Shown here piece by piece: positions 4,269 through 31,252 of a DNA stretch of 64,000 nt; position 1 is the first letter of the stretch, and each line of letters opens with the position of its first letter. This DNA comes from Synechococcus sp. GTDB taxonomy: Bacteria; Cyanobacteriota; Cyanobacteriia; PCC-6307; Cyanobiaceae. The position numbers and the translations under genes were made by a program. The notes under the pieces were generated by a model. It was not told the DNA's origin, made no database searches, and saw nothing but the letters and a program-made list of their open reading frames with translations. Location: the NCBI GenBank assembly GCA_047285535.1, contig JBJBDC010000001.1, positions 608,136-672,135 of the forward strand, written 5' to 3'.

Positions 4269-5465
4269 TTAAACGGCAGAGAGATTGTTTTCCAGAAGAT
4301 CGATCGCCCGTTGAATACGGTCATTGATCAGAGCCAGCTCCGATGGATCAATCCAGTAGCCAAGACTGAGCCGCAGCCCTGATCGCCGCCACTGAGGTTT
4401 AATTCCCATCGCTTCAAGGACTTGGCTATCACTGTCCTGACCAGATGTGCAAGCGCTGCCACTACTGGCTGCGACGCCTTGAAGGTCAAGAGCACGTACC
4501 AAGGCACGCCCAGACATTGGCTGACCACGTCGATCGCAGATCAGCAACGAAAGATGATGAGGAAGACGATCAATGGCATGGCCACTGAGATGGATTCCAT
4601 CTCTTTGACAAAGCATTTCAAGGAGGCAATCGCGTAATGATGCGATTCCTGATCCTGCTTCATTGATTTGATCTGCCTGACAGGGTCCGATTTCCTGCAG
4701 GGCAGCTGCCATTCCTTGTGCCAAGACCGGGGATTCAGTTCCAGCGCGAAGACCATTTTCTTGTTGCCCTCCCGCAAATAAGGGCTTCATCCTTTCCACC
4801 ATTTCATGTCTTAAGAGCAACAAACCGATACCTCTAGGACCACCACATTTGTGACCAGAGGCCGTCAAGAGGTCCACTGGAAGATCACTCCAGCTTGGGC
4901 AGCCTTGGCTCAGGACTTGGGAGGCATCAGTATGAAAGGGTATCTGTAGCGAACGACAGGCTTGACCCACGACCTGGATCGGTTGAATCGTTCCAACTTC
5001 GCTCTGCCCCCAAATCAAGGAAACGAGTTTTGTGGGAGGCTCAAGCAATCGATCCAGATGCTGCATCTGAATCCGGCCAAAGACATCTACTGGCCATGTT
5101 TCGACTGTCCATCCCAACGCGTTTAATTGTTGTGCAGCAGCATTAACAACGGGATGCTCAACAGCAGAAATGACCAGTCGTCCTGGAGATTCTCCCTTGG
5201 CCAGTCCAAGCAACGCGAGATGCGCCGACTCGGTAGCCCCAGATGTAAACACGATTTCTGATCGATCAATGTGAAGCGTTTGACCGATGGAAAGGCGTGC
5301 TCGCTCCAATGATTCAGCTGCATCACAACCGATGCGATGCAGACTTGATGGATTACCCCATGACCCATTCTGCGCATCCAGCATGGAAGACTTCGCGCTT
5401 TCTCTAAGGGGCGCTGTGGCACATCCATCAACATAGAAATAACGCTCTTCAGGATGAGCCATCAC
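4269..5465 (-). CDS. Cysteine desulfurase (class V PLP enzyme, IscS/NifS-like)
   Basis: GNPSSLH, FTSGATES, HTDASQ, SGHK (PLP lysine), SSGSACTS (catalytic Cys). Confidence 0.92.
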   Translation of the reverse strand: MMAHPEERYFYVDGCATAPLRESAKSSMLDAQNGSWGNPSSLHRIGCDAAESLERARLSIGQTLHIDRSEIVFTSGATESAHLALLGLAKGESPGRLVISAVEHPVVNAAAQQLNALGWTVETWPVDVFGRIQMQHLDRLLEPPTKLVSLIWGQSEVGTIQPIQVVGQACRSLQIPFHTDASQVLSQGCPSWSDLPVDLLTASGHKCGGPRGIGLLLLRHEMVERMKPLFAGGQQENGLRAGTESPVLAQGMAAALQEIGPCQADQINEAGSGIASLRDCLLEMLCQRDGIHLSGHAIDRLPHHLSLLICDRRGQPMSGRALVRALDLQGVAASSGSACTSGQDSDSQVLEAMGIKPQWRRSGLRLSLGYWIDPSELALINDRIQRAIDLLENNLSAV

Positions 5466-6606
5466 GATTCAATCGGGACAGGGTTCGTGCTTCTAATGAT
5501 TCACTTGCAATGTTGATGATGTCGTCCAGAGAAGTGGATGATAAAAATTGCTGGACTCGAGCTTGATCCTCATCACTTAGGCACTCATCTGGGTCGACGG
5601 AGTCATCGTTGCAGTCCGTTGAGCTGTCCGTGCGTTGAGGTTGAGTTGTTTGCGGCGTGGAGTTCTCAACACTGTTTGTGTTTCCTTGGTCTTCAAAAGT
5701 TGAAGACGTGATCTCTGTCTGCCTTGTTTGAGTGGATACTGTTTCTGGCAACAAGTCAGGATTAAGGACACCATCGAAGACCGAGACAGCTGGTCCAGTC
5801 ATAAACACTGATCCTTTGGAATCAGGCCAACTGATCTCAAGAGCTCCTCCAGGTAGCCAGACCTTGGCCTCACAGTCAGATAATCCAAGCAAGGTAGCGG
5901 CAACAAGCGTGGCGCAGGCACCCGTGCCACAGGCAAGGGTTGGACCAGCACCACGTTCCCAAATGCGTATACGAAGAGTCTGTCGATCAATGACTTGCAA
6001 GAAGTGAACATTTGTCTTTGCTGGAAAAAAGGAATGCACTTCTAATTGGGATCCCCAATGATCAAAAGGAATGGCTTCGATGTCTTCTACAGGAACAACC
6101 ACGTGAGGATTCCCCATGCCAACAGCAGCAAGCTGATGTTTTATGCCATCAAGATTGATCTCTCCTTGAGGAAGTCCAGAGCTGCCTGTTGAGAGTGTTG
6201 TGGGTATCTGATTGGGATCAAGGAAAGGCAATCCCATATCGACCCTAATCTGACCATCCTCCTGGAGTTCGGGGACAATAACGCCTGCCATGGTTTCCAT
6301 TCTCCAAGTTCTTCCAGGCTGATCCCCATCACTATCAGCAAGGAAACGGGCTAGGCAGCGGATGCCATTGCCGCACATCTCAGCTTCACTTCCATCCGCA
6401 TTAAAAATGCGCATCCTTAGTTCTTCGCCATGCTGTGCAGGCAGGGCCAAAATCAAACCATCTGCGCCAATGCCAAATCGGCGATCACACAGCTGGCGAA
6501 CCCAAATGGGATCTGGATCTCTGATATTGATGGGTAGTTGACCTGCGCGACCCTCCAACAGCACGAAATCGTTGCCTAAACCCTGATACTTGCTGAACGA
6601 AAGCAT
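5449..6606 (-). CDS. dapF: Diaminopimelate epimerase with acidic C-terminal extension
   Basis: KYQGLGNDF, EMCGNGIRC, GNPH, ERGAGPTLACGTGACA; start ATG 6606 (MLSFSKYQG). Confidence 0.96.
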   Translation of the reverse strand: MLSFSKYQGLGNDFVLLEGRAGQLPINIRDPDPIWVRQLCDRRFGIGADGLILALPAQHGEELRMRIFNADGSEAEMCGNGIRCLARFLADSDGDQPGRTWRMETMAGVIVPELQEDGQIRVDMGLPFLDPNQIPTTLSTGSSGLPQGEINLDGIKHQLAAVGMGNPHVVVPVEDIEAIPFDHWGSQLEVHSFFPAKTNVHFLQVIDRQTLRIRIWERGAGPTLACGTGACATLVAATLLGLSDCEAKVWLPGGALEISWPDSKGSVFMTGPAVSVFDGVLNPDLLPETVSTQTRQTEITSSTFEDQGNTNSVENSTPQTTQPQRTDSSTDCNDDSVDPDECLSDEDQARVQQFLSSTSLDDIINIASESLEARTLSRLNRDGSS

Positions 6607-6647
6607 GGACTCAAACTCCAGTGATGAAAGGGGCTCTAGGCTGCTGC

Positions 6648-6669
6648 CTAGGCCCAAGGTCTAGGCCCA
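6648..6669 (+). repeat. Left-end tandem 9-mer CTAGGCCCA-aggt-CTAGGCCCA (putative integrase arm-type sites)
   Basis: Matches 9948-9969 at 19 of 22 positions. Confidence 0.65.
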
Positions 6670-7673
6670 TAACTTGATTCGAAAACGCCAATCAATAGAT
6701 GAAGCAATTTAGGAGAACAGGCCCGCGAGGTAGTCTGAATCGCCACTGGGGATTCTCATTTGCAATTCGTTCTTGAGAATAAGCCCTCCATTTCCTCCTG
6801 CATCGTAGATACAGCCTGGAGTCTTAGGGAATAGGTGGTCCTAGATCTGGATAGTTCATCCGGGAATACTCCTTCTCTCCTTCCTGTTTGTCTGTCTTCC
6901 GTTGAGCTTTCTCTGTTCCCAGCTCGAGGCACTGCACTTGCCGATCGATCTAAGCCTCTTGGCCGGCATCCAGGTTGCGCAGCTCACGAGCTACTTGCTG
7001 GGCCAGCAGTTGATCTTCAGGAAGTTGTAGTGATGGTCATAGTTTTTGTCCTTAATAGGGGCTTGTTGTTGTTTTCGTTGGGTTTCTTCAGCGATCAGAT
7101 CTTCCAATCGTTAGATGAGTCTGACCATCTTGTCCTTTTCCTCCATCAGTTCATCGTTGATGTACTAAGAAGGAAGGTCTGGGTGTTTGAGGCAGTTCTT
7201 CGTGCTCCGTAGTGAGAGCCGTGCTGCCTTGAGTCGTGTCCTTCGCAGAACTAATGACTCGTTCTTGCGGATTGCCATGGAATTTGTTGTGTACATTTGG
7301 TGTCATGAAAGCCGCTTGACAGGGCTTGACCCGAGGCAAACGGAAGGCAAGAAAAAAGCCTCATAAAGCGAGCGCGAGGAAAACACGAGGTGCTTGAGCT
7401 TTAGGCACCCTATGGAAAGGATGGTGAAGCTAAAGAAAGCATCAGCATTAACCACTCAAAACTCGAAATTTTGGATTTATTCCCGAATAATGAGGCTCTA
7501 GAAAGACAATCAATATGAAGTTAAATCAACCATTTATCTTGCGAGCAGAGCAGACTATGCGGCATTTTTTATTCTCCCGCCAAGAAAAAAATAATGCAAA
7601 TTATAAGAAATGTTGGATAGACTTGTTTTCGATTGAATCTTGAAGCCAGGCTGTAGAAGAGTTTAGATTCCCA

Positions 7674-8183
7674 ATGAGAAAAACAATGCGTATTGGCGTC
7701 AGGACTATCACAATAGCTTTGGCAAGTTTGCTTCCTTCTTTTGCTAGCCCAGCGGTTGCTTTTGAACTAAACCTAACTCAACCAATACAGCCTCGTGTAA
7801 CTAAACCAATTGAACCTCCTCGATATCAAGACACTCCTGTAGTTACTCAACCTCCTGTATATCAGCCTCCTGTATATCAACCTCCTGTAGTTACTCAACC
7901 TCCTGTATATCAGCCTCCTGCATATCAACCTCCTGTAGTTCATCAACCTCCTGTATATCAACCTCCTGTATATCAACCTCCTGTATATCAACCTCCTGTA
8001 GTTCATCAACCTCCTGTATATCAGCCTCCTGTATATCAGCCTCCTGGGTATCACCGCCCCCATTATCCAACTATTCATACTTCAACTCCAGGGCCTTATT
8101 CGCCTCCACAGCTTGATCCAAATCAGCCATATAGGGAGCTTGGAAGGAGTTTAGGTCAGCTGTTCAACCAAATGCTGCAATAA
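7674..8183 (+). CDS. Secreted proline-rich repeat protein (PPVYQ repeats)
   Basis: Basic N-terminus, hydrophobic core and AVA cleavage motif; intact frame through 14 repeat units; non-repetitive amphipathic C-terminus (YRELGRSLGQLFNQMLQ). Confidence 0.8.
   Translation: MRKTMRIGVRTITIALASLLPSFASPAVAFELNLTQPIQPRVTKPIEPPRYQDTPVVTQPPVYQPPVYQPPVVTQPPVYQPPAYQPPVVHQPPVYQPPVYQPPVYQPPVVHQPPVYQPPVYQPPGYHRPHYPTIHTSTPGPYSPPQLDPNQPYRELGRSLGQLFNQMLQ
7833..8054 (+). repeat. Coding tandem repeat of 15/18-bp units (CARCCTCCTGTATAT; CAACCTCCTGTAGTTACT/CAT)
   Basis: Read directly; encodes [PPVV(T/H)Q (PPxYQ)2-3] x4. Confidence 0.97.
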
Positions 8184-8288
8184 CATCATCACTATATTTT
8201 TGATGATCTAGGGACTCAGCTCTCGATGCACCTCGAAGCACATGTAAATAATTGCTCTCCAATTGCAGCCTTATCGTATTTCATTTTT

Positions 8289-8310
8289 CCCCGCCACGTG
8301 CGGGGCTTTT
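8289..8310 (+). terminator. Putative intrinsic terminator downstream of the PPVYQ gene
   Basis: CCCCGC-CACGT-GCGGGG hairpin followed by CTTTT. Confidence 0.55.
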
Positions 8311-8320
8311 CTTAGACAGA

Positions 8321-8536
8321 TTAACCATTTGGATAGATGATCTGATAGAAGCGGCCTTCTTCTGGATCTGTTGAGTTATGACCCTCCACGGCCTCCCTTT
8401 TGTCTGAATGACTCAATGGGTTTTCACTCTCCAGCAAGTGATCAGGACCTGGAGGATGCAAGGCGCTAATAAGTTCCGTCAGCTCAAGCAACACTTGAAC
8501 GTTTCTTGATCGCATTGGGCTCATATCTTTTTTCAT
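8321..8536 (-). CDS. Hypothetical small protein in the island
   Basis: 71-aa ATG-initiated ORF downstream of the integrase on the same strand; no recognisable motif. Confidence 0.3.
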   Translation of the reverse strand: MKKDMSPMRSRNVQVLLELTELISALHPPGPDHLLESENPLSHSDKREAVEGHNSTDPEEGRFYQIIYPNG

Positions 8537-8712
8537 GTGCCACTCAATGTGTCAGTTTGGGCGCCCTCGCTAGTGAATGAGGGAAAGTAGTGAGATACAG
8601 CAAGGTCAGCCCTCGAATTGGTGTCCTTTTCCCATCGTTTTGCTGGTGTTTAGGTTTACTTATCCCGTCACCATCTGGGGTTTAAAGGAATTCCAGTGTT
8701 CATGCGCAGCAC

Positions 8713-9932
8713 TCAGTTCAGTTGACCCAGTGCCTTCCGCATCGTGTCCATATCAACGGCTCCATAGACACAGGTCTGTGTCTTCGGGGTGTGACCAAAC
8801 AACCCGCCGATGACTGACTCATTGATGTCTTTTGATCTGAAACACGTGGCTGCCCAATCACGGGTCGCCTTTGGGTTAACCCCGATGTGCTTGGTCCAGT
8901 GCATGGCCTCACACGACCGACCACCACGCTTGGGGCTGTAGGCCCGGGAAAGATCAATCCCCCACATGGTTCGTCGAGCTTCTCTTGCCGAAGGATTGGA
9001 AGCAGGTGCGGGTGAATCGGGATGACCCTGTCTCGGAAGACGTTCTTCAGTGAGCCTGTCGTGTGGCGCTTGACGCGAATGGTCTCCTCTTGAAGATCAA
9101 TGTCTTCCCAGCGCAGACCCCCTACCTCTGAAGCATGAGCACCTGCAAAGCGCAGGATGTGCCAAAGCAGTTGCTGGTGTCGCGGCAACTGCTTCCACTT
9201 CTGGTCTGCCTCATCCAGCGTCACAACATCCTTCTTCGTTTCTTTGTGCTTGACCCTCTTGGTAAGTCCTTCGAAGACGTTGCTCTCAACCCAGCCCTCT
9301 TCCAGGGACACAGCAAACAGTCCATTGAGGAAATGCAGACTAGTCTTGACGGTTGAGGGTTGGCACCTGCTCAGCTCATTAGCCCTCCAAGCCAGTGGAT
9401 CGTCACCAATGGCCTGCTGGATGTACTCCCTGCCGCTGTGCTCCATGAGCTGGCCCAGGTAGCGGCTCCATTCGTACGCAGTGCCTGTTGAAGGGTCCTT
9501 TAGGAGGCGTTGACCTGGTCATCAGATGATCGGGGCTTGTGAGGGCCTTAGCGGCGCCTTTCAGGACACCTTGGGCAATGTCCTGCAGCTCCGCGTATTT
9601 GGGGTTGATCGTTCCCTCGTCATCCAGGTGCATGGGCTCTTTGCTGACTTGCTGGACGAGGTCATGTCCATCAAGATCTGTAGGTGCCTTAGCAACATCT
9701 GGGATGAGGGATATCAGCTTTGCGCAGGCCTTAATTGCTTTCCCCTTGCCTCACGTATCAGCTGCTCTGACTCCTCCAGAAATACAGCTGCATTCCTCTT
9801 GACCTCGGACAGGGAGTCGCCCGCTTTGCGTATCCATGGGGCCTTGCCGATGACATCACGGCAATCAGGCGGCACGCTTCATTGGAAGAACCATTCCTTG
9901 TGGCCCTTCCTGCTTTTCAGATAGTTAGCCAT
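8713..9932 (-). pseudogene. Tyrosine recombinase/integrase pseudogene with DUF6538-like N-terminus
   Basis: Starts MANYLKSRKGHKEWFFQ*SVPPDCRDVIG (TGA at 9879-9881); frame changes near 9720, 9500-9450 and 8960; core LRFAGAHASEVGGLRWEDIDL, LKNVFRDRVIPIHP; C-terminal KATRDWAAT, LFGH, VYG. Confidence 0.88.
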
Positions 9933-9947
9933 CTTCTGGTCACCGAT

Positions 9948-9969
9948 CTAGGCCCAGGCTCTAGGTCCA
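9948..9969 (+). repeat. Right-end tandem 9-mer CTAGGCCCA-ggct-CTAGGTCCA (putative arm-type sites)
   Basis: Just upstream of the integrase ATG (9932); direct copy of 6648-6669. Confidence 0.65.
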
Positions 9970-10067
9970 GGCGTCCCTGAAATCAGTTGCTGACAGTGCT
10001 CTTCTGGCTTCTTAGCTACAGACTTTATTGAATTGCAGCATGACAAGTCCGATCCCTCTCTGATCCT

Positions 10068-10298
10068 ATGGACCAAAGTTCCTTCGATCCGAGTCTGCCA
10101 AGTATTCGCTTGTTGCAGATGTGGATTCGTGAACACAGAATTCTCAGCTTGGAATTGCTTGATGGTCGGCGCCTGATTGGTGTTCTGATCTGGCAAGACC
10201 ATCAATGTCTGGCGCTTCAACCAACTGATGCTGACGACCTGGTTTTGGTCAGCCGTGCAGCCATGCTTTTGGTGCGTCCGTTGCCTGCTGGGCTTTGA
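10068..10298 (+). CDS. hfq: Cyanobacterial Hfq-like (Sm-fold) protein
   Basis: FDPSLPSIRLLQ...GVLIWQD...LVSRAAMLLVRP, the cyanobacterial Hfq pattern. Confidence 0.88.
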   Translation: MDQSSFDPSLPSIRLLQMWIREHRILSLELLDGRRLIGVLIWQDHQCLALQPTDADDLVLVSRAAMLLVRPLPAGL

Positions 10299-10340
10299 AA
10301 ACGGAATTTATGTCACGATCTGTCCAAATGTTCCCTTGCC

Positions 10341-12944
10341 GTGACGGCTTCCTCGTTCCCATCCGCCAGCACAGCTGCGGCGCCTTGTGATCGTTACCAA
10401 CCCCTTGAAATCGAGGATCGATGGCAAGCGCTGTGGAAGGAACAGCGTCTTTATGAAACGCAGGATCCCAAGCCTGGGCAACGTCCGTTTTATGCCTTGT
10501 CCATGTTCCCGTACCCATCGGGCACGTTGCATATGGGACACGTTCGCAATTACGTCATCACAGATGTAATTGCCCGCGTTCAACGCATGCGTGGTGATGC
10601 CGTTCTTCATCCCATGGGATGGGATTCCTTTGGTTTACCAGCCGAAAATGCTGCCATTGAACGGAAGGTAGAGCCCGGCCTATGGACCGATAGGAATATC
10701 ACCCAGATGCGAGGTCAACTGGGTCGACTCGGGTTGTCGATCGACTGGAATCGAGAGTTGGCTACCTGTCATAGCGATTACTACCGCTGGACCCAATGGC
10801 TCTTCCTGGAACTTCATGCTGGCGGACTTGCTTATCAAAAAGAGGCAACCGTGAACTGGGACCCTGTTGACCAGACGGTTCTTGCCAACGAACAAGTGGA
10901 TGCCGATGGTCGCTCCTGGCGCTCTGGTGCGATCGTTGAACAGCGGGACTTGCGCCAATGGTTTCTGCGCATCACTGACTATGCCGATGCGCTGCTTGAT
11001 GATCTTGATCACCTGCAGGGATGGCCTGATCGGGTGCGCACCATGCAGGCCAATTGGATTGGTCGTTCCACTGGTGCTGAGATTGATTTCCAAGTTGATC
11101 AACATCCAGATCTTTCAATCACTGTGTTCACAACACGTCCAGATACTTTGTATGGAGTGAGCTATCTCGTTTTGGCTCCTGACCATCCGCTTGTATCTCA
11201 ACTTACAACTGAAAATGAATACGTTTCGGTAACTGCGTTCAGAGATTTGATGGCCCAACTTAGTCATGAAGAGCGCACGACTGATGATCAACCCAAACGT
11301 GGTGTGCCAACAGGATCAAGTGCCATTAATCCAGCCAATGGTGAATCAATTCCCATTTGGATCGCAGATTACGTCCTGTCTGATTTTGGAACGGGTGCCG
11401 TGATGGGTGTACCAGCCCATGACACTCGAGATTTCGCCTTCGCTCGGCAACATGAATTGCCCGTGCGCAAGGTCATTCAAGTGCCCGAAGCCGATGAGCA
11501 CGCCAATGATGGTGAAGCCTGGATAGGACCAGGCACCTTGATTCAATCAGCTGGCTTTAACGGCTTGACCAATGAAGAGGCTAAGATATCTATTGTGAAT
11601 CATGGGGCCGAAAATGGTTGGGCTCGAACTAAACGCCAATACAGACTTCGCGATTGGTTGATTTCCAGACAGAGATATTGGGGATGCCCAATTCCGATCA
11701 TTCATTGTGATTCTTGTGGTGCAGTTCCTGTCCCAAAAGAGCAACTACCAGTCAAACTTCCTACCGGGATTGATCTCAACGGTGCAGGCGGTTCCCCACT
11801 TTCTCTAGCTGAGGAATGGGTCAATGTGAGTTGTCCCAAATGTGGAAAAAATGCTCGTCGTGAGACAGACACCATGGACACGTTCATGTGTTCATCTTGG
11901 TACTTCTTGCGATTTGCAGATCCTCACAACAAGGAACTGCCATTTGACTCCAAAACAGTCAGAGATTGGTTACCAGTTAACCAATATGTTGGCGGAATCG
12001 AACATGCAATACTTCATTTACTGTATGCACGTTTCTTCACCAAGGCGCTCAAAGATCGCGATCTTCTAGATGTGAATGAACCTTTTGAACGCTTGCTGAC
12101 ACAAGGCATGGTGCAGGGCATTACTTACAAGAACCCTCGAACTGGTCGTTATGTCTCCACTCCCACGCTGATCGATGAAGCAGATCCGCGAGACCCGGAT
12201 GACGGAGGCCCCTTGGATGTGCTCTTTGAAAAAATGTCGAAGTCGAAGCATAACGGTGTTGATCCAGCATCTGTTATTGATCGTTATGGCGCTGATACAG
12301 CTCGTATGTTCATCCTTTTCAAAGCTCCTCCAGAAAAGGATTTGGAATGGGATGATGCCGATGTAGAGGGGCAATTTCGATTTTTGCAGCGTCTCTGGAG
12401 ACTTGTCGCCTCGGAGATCAATCAAGAAGACACGATCAATCCAACAAAAGAAGCAGACACAGAGATCAGGAGAGCAGTGCATCAAGCCATTCAGGCTGTT
12501 AGCGAGGATCTCAGTGGCGAATTTCAGTTCAACACAGCCATTGCTGAGCTGATGAAGCTCAGTAATGCCCTCTCTTCAGGCCTTCAACAGGCCTCAGATG
12601 GAGTTCGCAAAGAGGCAATGTCGGTACTCATCCGCTTGTTGGCTCCATTTGCACCACATCTCGCTGAGGAGTTTTGGCGACTCCTTGGCAGTGAAGAGAG
12701 CGTTCATCTTCAGCCCTGGCCGGAGCTCGATCCAAAAGCGCTCGTCAAGGAGTCGATTGATGTTGTGATTCAAGTCAAGGGAAAAGTTCGCGGATCGATT
12801 TCGGTAGCAGTCGATTGCTCGAGGGAAGAATTGGAGCGCTTGGCTCTTGCCAGCGATGTTGCTCAGCGTTGGTTAGGTGGGACCCCCCCAAAAAGAGTGA
12901 TTGTTGTTCCTGGGAAGCTCGTCAACTTGGTGCCGAGCACCTAA
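10341..12944 (+). CDS. leuS: Leucine--tRNA ligase
   Basis: [13 protein letters not shown] (HIGH), KMSKS and CP1 editing domain. Confidence 0.98.
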
Positions 12945-27734: not shown

Positions 27735-28682
27735 ATGTCAATTCAGAAGAGTTCATTTCTTCTCCGACATAGGCCAGCATCAGAGAAGTTCGTCGATGTA
27801 AGTTTCAAAAACATAGTGGTATTGATGGCTTCCATGGTTGCCGTGATACTTATCGGCATCTTTCTCGTAGTTTTATGGGGTTCTCTTGAATCTATGGGGA
27901 GGTACGGACTGAGATTCCTAGTGACCTCTGATTGGAACCCTGTTAAAGACGAATACGGTGCTTTTACAGCAATCTATGGAACCCTGGTTACCTCCTTACT
28001 AGCCTTATTCATTGCCGTCCCTCTGGGTGTAGGAACAGCGATTTTTATTACAGAAAACATAATCCCAAAAAGGATTAGGGGAGCTATCGGATTCATGATT
28101 GAATTATTGGCAGCCATACCTTCTGTTGTTTTGGGATTGTGGGCAATATTTATTTTAGAACCCTTTATTCGACCCTTCCTATTGTTTTTACATAATCATT
28201 TTGGATGGATACCTATCTTCAATACAGAACCACTAGGCCCAGGAATCGCCCCTGCGATTCTAATTTTAGTTGTCATGATTTTACCTATCATAACCGCCAT
28301 AACACGTGACTGCCTAAATCAAGTACCTATTAAACTTCGTCAAGCAGCCTATGGCGTTGGCACAACAAGATGGGGAGCCATTATCCACGTCATTCTTCCC
28401 GCTGCATTCTCTGGCATTACTGGCGGAGTCATGCTTGCCCTTGGAAGAGCCATGGGAGAAACCATGGCAGTGACAATGATTATTGGTAATTCAAATGTTT
28501 TTAGCTGGTCACTACTTGCTCCAGGTAACACTATCTCAGCAATGATTGCAAATCAGTTTGGTGAAGCCGATGTTGGGCAACTATCGTCTCTTATGTACGC
28601 AGCATTTGTCTTAATGATACTGACATTAATTGTCAATATCATTGCCCAGTTGTTTGTCAAACGGATGAGCCTAAAGTACTAA
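27735..28682 (+). CDS. pstC: Phosphate ABC transporter permease PstC
   Basis: LAAIPSVVLGLW, GRAMGETMAV. Confidence 0.96.
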   Translation: MSIQKSSFLLRHRPASEKFVDVSFKNIVVLMASMVAVILIGIFLVVLWGSLESMGRYGLRFLVTSDWNPVKDEYGAFTAIYGTLVTSLLALFIAVPLGVGTAIFITENIIPKRIRGAIGFMIELLAAIPSVVLGLWAIFILEPFIRPFLLFLHNHFGWIPIFNTEPLGPGIAPAILILVVMILPIITAITRDCLNQVPIKLRQAAYGVGTTRWGAIIHVILPAAFSGITGGVMLALGRAMGETMAVTMIIGNSNVFSWSLLAPGNTISAMIANQFGEADVGQLSSLMYAAFVLMILTLIVNIIAQLFVKRMSLKY

Positions 28683-31109: not shown

Positions 31110-31119
31110 GTGGCTGGAA

Positions 31120-31206
31120 CGGAGAGGGAGGGATTCGAACCCTCGATAGAGTTGCCCCTATACAGCATTTCCAGTGCTGCGCCTTCGACCACTCGGCCAC
31201 CTCTCC
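31120..31206 (-). tRNA. tRNA-Ser (GGA)
   Basis: GGAGAGGTGGCCGAGTGG...CAGCA-CT-GGA-AA-TGCTG, long variable arm, GGTTCGAATCC, CTCTCCG; 87 nt, CCA not encoded. Confidence 0.97.
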
Positions 31207-31252
31207 AGTGGCTTGAATGAGAATGTAGCAGGGCGTTTCCTTAGGGACTGAG

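Follow-up and report, generated by a model that had tools for sequence, protein, structure and literature searches.

The window analyzed here is a 64,000-nucleotide (nt) stretch of Synechococcus sp. (GenBank assembly GCA_047285535.1, contig JBJBDC010000001.1, positions 608,136–672,135 of the forward strand). It contains an island lying between the diaminopimelate epimerase gene dapF and a divergently oriented hfq-related gene. The dapF gene (5449–6606, minus strand) is intact, encodes 385 amino acids and matched TIGR00652 at 285.5 bits (cut-off 114.65). It starts at 6606 with ATGCTTTCGTTCAGCAAGTAT (MLSFSKY) and is native from nt 10–14 onward. The hfq-related gene (10068–10298, plus strand; 76 amino acids) is the native divergent neighbour of dapF and belongs to the flank outside the island. 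Its product matched the NCBIfam model Hfq_rel_Cyano (NF047718, 65.3 bits; cut-off 52) and Pfam Hfq_1 (68.5 bits), and the next gene is leuS, a name that rests on the HMGH and KMSKS motifs as read. The comparisons described below make us confident that the island is a 3,435-base-pair (bp) site-specific integrative element that recombined with the first 13–19 nt of dapF and supplied the gene with a new start.

The two ends of the island both carry the beginning of a dapF gene. At the hfq-side junction (attR; 10012–10041, minus strand) the sequence reads ATGCTGCAATTCAATAAAGTCTGTAGCTAA, in which nt 1–13 of the native dapF (ATGCTGCAATTCA, 10041–10029) are followed by element DNA. This remnant forms a dead nine-codon open reading frame (ORF), MLQFNKVCS followed by a stop codon, and is separated from the hfq gene by the native spacer of 26 nt (10042–10067). 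An earlier note on this DNA had reported the MLSFSKY start at 6606, the short reading frame from 10041 and the hfq ATG 26 nt from it, and all three were confirmed in the sequence. The remnant contains a TTCA (10029–10032, minus strand), the probable crossover segment, which is the sole stretch that the host- and element-derived sides can share; its counterpart lies in the same register at the dapF-side junction (attL; 6594–6597, minus strand). Beyond this second copy lie the element-supplied dapF codons 1–3 (ATG CTT TCG, encoding MLS; 6598–6606, minus strand), preceded by an element-supplied leader (6607–6647, minus strand) with a ribosome-binding-site-like GGAGTTT at −13 to −7. At the other end, 59 nt of element DNA (9970–10028, minus strand) lie between the core and a pair of 9-mers on the integrase side.

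To compare this arrangement with that of relatives, genome contigs were searched with DapF residues 1–285. This search returned at least 596 confirmed relatives, from which 80 loci were fetched. By title and identity, 22 of these (L001–L020, L042 and L054) were taken as cyanobacterial, and the remaining 58 served only as background in the island and integrase comparisons. The closest fetched relative among the loci listed was L001, with a DapF 84% and an Hfq 82% (81.6%) identical to those of the window. L001 has no island: only 26 nt separate the divergently oriented hfq and dapF, and dapF starts with ATGCTGCAATTCAGCAAG (MLQFSK); reading from hfq, the 26-nt spacer leads into ATGCTGCAATTCAGCAAGTAC. 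The window spacer is identical to that of L001 at 23 of 26 positions, and the ATGCTGCAATTCA remnant matches the L001 dapF start at 13 of 13, with identity stopping at nt 14. The window therefore tracks L001 up to the TTCA at 10032–10029 and resumes from the TTCA at 6597–6594, while the leader and the 59-nt stretch are absent from the L001 empty site. Counted between the two TTCA copies, with L001 as the empty site, the insert is 3,435 bp long. Within the first 30 nt of dapF, the window differs from L001 at nt 6–9 (TTCG vs GCAA, within the element-supplied codons) and by synonymous changes at nt 21, 24 and 30.

These data bear directly on the earlier note, which had predicted an empty allele joining 6597 to 10033. 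Exactly this allele is present in L001. The note had also named, as the contrary case, an island-free relative whose dapF begins MLSF with the upstream sequence of the window (6607–6650), or whose spacer is unlike that of the window; L001 instead starts MLQF, has no leader and shares 23 of 26 spacer positions. The agreement of the TTCA register at the two ends, which the note had pointed out, is beyond chance, given the match of L001 to the remnant and spacer. A second relative gave the same answer at the protein level: P0050, encoded on a 1.2-Mb contig, is 98% identical to the window DapF (376 of 385 residues) and starts MLQF, with S3Q among the nine differences. The L001 join and the MLQF start of P0050 together place the element within codons 4–5 and show that it supplies codons 1–3, so the proposal that codons 4–5 are targeted and that the element provides an in-frame start is upheld. 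As a result of the start swap, DapF is whole but carries Q3S.

The distribution of empty sites was then used to weigh the direction of the event. Of the 22 cyanobacterial loci, 18 have a divergent hfq on the upstream side of dapF (none was found in L002, L009, L042 and L054), and in 15 of these 18 it lay within about 100 nt. The two genes are separated by 26 nt in L001 and L006, by 23 nt in L004 and by about 39–100 nt in 12 more loci. The starts of the DapF relatives were counted in 120 listed sequences: MLQFSKY occurred 81 times, MLTF 13, MLAF 8, MLHF 5, MIQF 4, MLSF 3, MISF once and LLQF once, and 4 had no readable N-terminus. In freshwater Cyanobium loci the start reads VLQF. The window's own DapF is represented in the protein collection (P0051) only by a 321-amino-acid form starting at Met65, without the swapped N-terminus. 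Site-specific recombination is reversible, and a DapF that is 98% identical and unswapped fits a gain in one lineage as well as a loss in the other. The island might accordingly be ancestral, lost by precise excision from L001, L004, L006 and the P0050 genome, with MLQF as the repaired state. However, the tight hfq–dapF arrangement and the LQF start are spread over distant lineages, including the Cyanobium VLQF forms, and a native site can be restored by excision only where it existed before the insertion. We therefore regard an ancestral island as highly improbable; it would in any case involve the same mechanism and differ only in direction.

The junctions of the integrated element were next compared position by position. 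They have CATGCT in common, differ at 4 nt, share TTCA, differ at 2 nt and share AA, and thus agree at 12 of 18 positions. Because of this agreement, the recognised site is likely to be longer than 4 bp, and the earlier suggestion of a shared core of only about 4 bp does not hold. In the native site of L001, CATGCT GCAATTC AGCAAG, the outer 6-mers form an imperfect inverted repeat (5 of 6) on either side of 7 nt, which would fit the usual core layout of tyrosine recombinases.

Each end of the island also carries a pair of 9-mers with a 13-nt period. The dapF-side pair, CTAGGCCCA aggt CTAGGCCCA (6648–6669, plus strand), lies 41 nt from the dapF ATG. The other, CTAGGCCCA ggct CTAGGTCCA (9948–9969, plus strand), is 59 nt away from the core, and the integrase ATG follows it after 15 nt. 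Exact CTAGGCCCA occurs four times in the 64 kilobases (kb), three of them at the island ends; when up to one mismatch was allowed, 17 copies were counted where 9.05 were expected, a number reached in 0 of 100 shuffles. The fourth exact copy is at 28233–28241, far from the island, and an inverted one-mismatch copy lies inside the island at 6836–6844. In lambda-type sites, short direct repeats stand on both arms at a distance of tens of nucleotides from a short core, and one of the sets immediately precedes int. The layout of the 9-mers in the window agrees with this, and they are likely candidates for arm-type integrase binding sites. As far as Pfam shows, the difference lies in the N-terminal domain of the integrase, which is DUF6538-like rather than the arm-binding fold of lambda.

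The two pairs together form the longest direct repeat bracketing the region, 22 nt long and identical at 19 positions (6648–6669 vs 9948–9969). One could argue on this basis that the repeat is the true core, that the island comprises only the DNA between its copies, and that dapF has always begun MLSF. The empty site in L001 speaks against this: it has neither the repeat nor the 41 nt (6607–6647) and 59 nt (9970–10028) outside it, and its spacer runs straight into ATGCTGCAATTCAGCAAG. Their absence from the empty site, together with that of the outer stretches, rules the repeats out as the place of crossover. The 22-nt repeat was therefore rejected as the attachment core, and we consider this explanation the most improbable of those examined.

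A tyrosine integrase pseudogene (8716–9932, minus strand) was delimited by tblastn of an intact relative, P0003; it starts about 100 nt from the hfq-side junction. It contains a TGA at codon 18 (9881–9879; Arg in P0003) and, relative to P0003, frame changes near 9750–9720, near 9520 and near 8960–8946. As dapF, hfq and leuS are all whole, these breaks reflect decay and not poor sequence. The tyrosine integrase that had been reported in the island is thus present, although its pseudogene state, with the TGA and three frameshifts, had been missed. An in-frame piece of 190 amino acids, 79% identical to P0003, was used as the query against 651 candidates of 334–2,000 amino acids at E ≤ 0.001. This yielded 47 relatives of 351–430 amino acids, the best 79% identical; matches of about 405 amino acids align from residue 1, and the named ones come from Synechococcus KORDI-52 (70%), SYN20 (56%) and a Synechococcus metagenome-assembled genome. 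Precomputed domains placed PF00589 in 46 of the 47 and PF20172 in 2. The window piece scored 21.1 bits with PF00589, below the cut-off of 27.1, because the gene is broken; the intact relatives P0003, P0038 and P0017 scored 33.4, 29.2 and 27.5 bits, respectively, and P0003 matched the phrog_1 integrase at 125.6 bits. Among the 1.84 billion proteins of a library clustered at 50% identity, 39 were related to P0003 at E ≤ 1e-30; at E ≤ 1e-10 the number rose to 120. A tblastn search of P0003 against 50,697 phage records returned no cyanophage, only two Bacillus phages at 28% identity.

The integrase had been described as DUF6538-type, an assignment that would hold at the level of the family only. 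DUF6538 (PF20172, cut-off 27) was matched by P0017 at 29.1 bits and occurs in 30–94% of the members of look-alike protein clusters, whereas P0003 fell below the cut-off at 18.6 bits and the N-terminal piece from the window had no Pfam match at E ≤ 0.01. The family also shows an apparent peculiarity in its active-site residues. The canonical catalytic residues of tyrosine recombinases are Arg-Lys-His-Arg-His/Trp-Tyr. When a 25-member profile was compared with the XerC-like 4a8e and XerD 1a0p, a near-invariant His was found at the position of the first Arg and a Lys at that of the first His, while the second Arg, the GH motif and the Tyr are retained. In motif terms, GxHxSE stands for GxRxSE and PKAxRD for PHxLRH (P0003 residues 266 and 355–359; approximately 9140–9125 and 8880–8865 in the window). 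The His occurs together with Lys..Arg-Asp in 10 of 29 family members and more distant relatives taken together; most others are canonical. The alignment suggests that the active site of this integrase is possibly non-canonical.

Three of the cyanobacterial loci have longer gaps between hfq and dapF, occupied by unrelated DNA without an integrase: L007 (390 nt, 4642–5031), L003 (864 nt, 9137–10000) and L005 (3,779 nt, 6222–10000). The gap in L005 holds ORFs of 268 and 185 amino acids, and the two loci with the longest gaps also have an altered third codon (MLTF and MLAF). These gaps may be older integration scars. No dapF-start remnant next to hfq and no paired 9-mers upstream of dapF were found in the three loci, so their spacers provide no evidence for the same mechanism. 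They lend some weight to a different view, namely that the hfq–dapF gap gathers foreign DNA by insertion that is not site-specific, the ATGCT....TTCA likeness in the window being chance or a decayed target duplication. Several observations in the window oppose this view. Both borders fall in coding sequence, in frame and at an identical set of 4 nt. An inward-pointing integrase gene begins about 100 nt inside one of them, and paired 9-mers stand at both. The upstream geometry recurs in L002, whose contig apparently also carries a related integrase. Decay of a duplication would, moreover, hardly leave four adjacent differences (TTCG vs GCAA) beside 13 unchanged nt. We thus see only a very slight chance that the insertion was non-site-specific.

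L002, a single-cell Synechococcus genome with a DapF 82% identical to that of the window, appears to hold a second element at the same place. The full 10 kb examined upstream of its dapF is unrelated to hfq, and a phage-like element abuts the gene. This element encodes a single-subunit RNA polymerase of 960 amino acids (PF00940, 76.4 bits; phrog_414, 277.7 bits) and a small-terminase-like ORF (phrog_891, 29.8 bits). Identity of the polymerase to any phage in the collection does not exceed about 24%. The element may represent an undescribed type of prophage or satellite. Every ORF in L002 1–10000 is co-oriented with dapF. The L002 dapF starts ATGTTGCAATTCAGC, and upstream of it TGGGCTTAC occurs twice with a 13-nt period, 41 nt from the ATG, with GGAGTTT at −13 to −7. 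The window and L002 therefore share the same upstream geometry at dapF. In an ungapped comparison, 34 of 70 nt were identical, a value reached in 0 of 20,000 shuffles and the best of about 20,800 L002 registers. An integrase 54% identical to the window piece, P0038, is recorded on a contig of 33,444 nt, which is also the length of the L002 contig; P0038 is thus apparently encoded on the L002 contig.

Traces of a similar upstream sequence were found in other lineages. In the DapF clusters P0052, P0093 and P0096 (1, 41 and 7 members, respectively), an upstream ATG in the dapF frame has been called as the start, and EPSS(I/R)LEFEE is read in frame before MIQFSKY. The window counterpart is EPLSSLEFES before MLSFSKY, P0088 has a weaker version, and the GGAGTTT stretch of the window leader is the one that reads LEFE in the upstream frame of the three clusters. 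In the window itself, no stop codon interrupts the dapF frame in the 17 codons before the ATG, from a TTG at 6657 through the leader, and the element may encode an N-terminal extension of DapF. As an indirect hint, four lengths (3,094, 2,150, 5,108 and 15,727 nt) recur among the longest contigs recorded for the 47 integrases and for the 120 DapF matches, where a local-density estimate expects 0.66.

The one visible junction of L002, the translated upstream frames and the coincident contig values led us to extend the claim to the family, which as a whole may target dapF. In its widest form, a His/Lys-variant integrase family of marine Synechococcus would dock at nt 1–13/19 of dapF, and its elements would include islands close to the minimum as well as a phage-like element that has its own single-subunit RNA polymerase. 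Each would bring a ribosome-binding site, a start codon and probably a promoter, so that expression of dapF, an essential peptidoglycan gene, and the hfq upstream region pass to the element, at a seeding site missed by tRNA-centred surveys. We put this forward tentatively, at somewhat less than an even chance. Some findings count against it and against the main account: the window–L002 identity of 34 of 70 is only slightly above that of the next-best register (31); P0038 does not lie inside the 20.9 kb of L002 examined; a contig of 2,150 nt is too short to hold both an integrase and dapF, so that this coincidence is due to chance; and for the 15,727 pair the sources recorded for the integrase and the DapF differ.

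What the sequence of the window shows directly is an insertion with precisely placed borders, three exchanged codons, a broken integrase gene and the repeats; the upstream geometry at dapF was also seen in L002. The following course of events would account for these observations. The element would have entered at the dapF start by lambda-like site-specific integration, with its own tyrosine integrase, of the family with a DUF6538-like N-terminus and encoded next to the hfq-side junction, as the probable recombinase. Strand exchange would have taken place in or next to the TTCA, in codons 4–5, a cut position that we infer from the junctions. The native ATG CTG CAA would have been left beside hfq as the dead nine-codon ORF, and the ATG CTT TCG of the element, with the GGAG and leader that it bears, would have been fused in frame to dapF from codon 4 onward. 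The integrase would then have decayed. The island is a fossil: with its integrase dead it is fixed in place, and dapF now relies on the element-supplied start. Because the native spacer is only 26 nt long, the insertion moved the upstream DNA of dapF and hfq 3.4 kb away. The element would consequently be expected to supply the dapF promoter and perhaps the hfq promoter.

Some of our results weigh against this reconstruction. Strict identity of the junctions at the crossover is limited to TTCA, and a 7-nt overlap would hold 4 mismatches; either the recombinase tolerates these, or the overlap is narrower, or the sequence changed afterwards. Other lineages differ at residue 3 of DapF (Thr in 13, Ala in 8, His in 5 and Ser in 3 of the 120), so a changed third codon alone is no mark of integration. 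A crude consensus scan upstream of 6606 revealed no sigma-70-like site on the dapF strand. The island had no likeness in the 80 fetched loci by blastn or tblastx, and no intact copy was among them; likewise, neither an excised circle nor an attP was seen in this analysis. Finally, when the 47 integrases were searched against the 80 loci by tblastn, no picocyanobacterial locus matched at E ≤ 0.1, and the five weak matches obtained (E 0.03–0.09) were all non-cyanobacterial.

The principle of targeting the 5′ end of a gene and rebuilding it is not new, as it is established for the dusA elements and for SXT at prfC. The dusA elements, in the parts of the reports consulted, are tyrosine-integrase elements in the 5′ end of a gene that bring their own in-frame replacement and leave imperfect direct repeats at the junctions (Farrugia et al. 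2015, PMC4482086; Durand et al. 2021, bioRxiv 10.1101/2021.06.18.448947). Like them, the element described here inserted in the 5′ end of a housekeeping gene, replaced it in frame and left imperfect junction repeats; unlike them, it lies in dapF and in a marine picocyanobacterium rather than a proteobacterium. The replaced segment also differs in size, three codons with one residue changed here against approximately 35 residues at 61% identity in IMEVchUSA3, and so does the place of the integrase, which here adjoins the remnant on the hfq side and, by the definition of the dusA elements in those parts, adjoins the dusA 5′ end. The two integrase families were compared by their shared Pfam domain only. 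Excision has been demonstrated for dusA islands. SXT/R391 similarly targets the 5′ end of a protein gene, prfC, and supplies a new 5′ end, as far as the sections consulted describe it. It is, however, a conjugative element, roughly 100 kb in size, and the island is a 3.4-kb fossil in which no transfer genes were found.

A further comparison is with the tycheposons of Prochlorococcus (Hackl et al.). The parts of the preprint consulted describe six tRNA genes and the tmRNA gene as their sites, partial tRNA repeats, and degenerate copies with fragmented integrases (bioRxiv 10.1101/2020.12.28.424599). Both are small, integrase-bearing cargo elements of marine picocyanobacteria with decayed copies among them; the tycheposons, as described there, attach at tRNA or tmRNA genes with a partial tRNA repeat, whereas the junctions here lie in dapF. 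The only tRNA gene in the 64-kb window is a tRNA-Ser at 31119–31207. The name dapF does not occur in the main text of that preprint. A full-text literature search revealed no report combining dapF or diaminopimelate epimerase with an integrase and Synechococcus, and DUF6538 went unmentioned in it. The terms dapF, attB and integrase occur together in two papers, and the one listed is an unrelated E. coli study, judging by its title and the start of its abstract. A protein-coding target, which the earlier note had called unusual, is known in principle from the dusA and prfC elements. New are the gene targeted and the group of hosts, together with the shortness of the segment replaced; the non-canonical active site of the integrase may be new as well.

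Such a site in a protein gene would be a kind of island seed that goes unseen in scans for tRNA repeats. It is also a very compact case: the essential gene survives the insertion with no more than three codons, a GGAG and a leader from the element, and Q3S is the only scar. Unusual residues at the second and third positions of DapF could therefore point cheaply to earlier integrations, provided that the genome context is checked. The 3.4-kb displacement, in turn, offers a natural test of dapF and hfq transcription.

The rest of the island consists of an orphan cargo gene and an interior without a recognisable gene. The cargo ORF (7674–8183, plus strand; 169 amino acids) has a hydrophobic N-terminus and lies in the AT-richest part of the island (guanine-cytosine content 0.385–0.44 in windows at 7400–8199). 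Between 7799 and 8061 it contains at least eleven in-frame PPVYQ, PPVVTQ or PPVVHQ units with periods of 15 or 18 nt, and it is flanked by a promoter-like site (7463–7491) and a terminator-like hairpin (8289–8305). A search with its product returned 31 matches, all low-complexity proline repeats (Extensin-like in Pfam). In the interior (6670–7673), the ORFs of 36–125 amino acids (ten, plus 6835–7209) had no Pfam or PHROGs match; the thirteen small ORFs of the island gave nothing credible in either collection, transfer genes were not found among the island ORFs in these scans, and an Rfam scan of 5000–11000 gave no match. The guanine-cytosine content is 0.555 in the integrase, 0.458 in the rest of the island and approximately 0.505 in the flanks.

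At its other end, the window DapF has a C-terminal extension of about 100 amino acids past the DAP_epimerase domains (5449–5750, minus strand), and the TIGR00652 match stops at residue 281 of 385. The tail is also present in L002 (10850–11131) and L005 (10850–11086), and its motif ...FLSSTSLD..I.LA..SLE.RT.SR is kept among the marine Synechococcus DapF matches of 365–398 amino acids.

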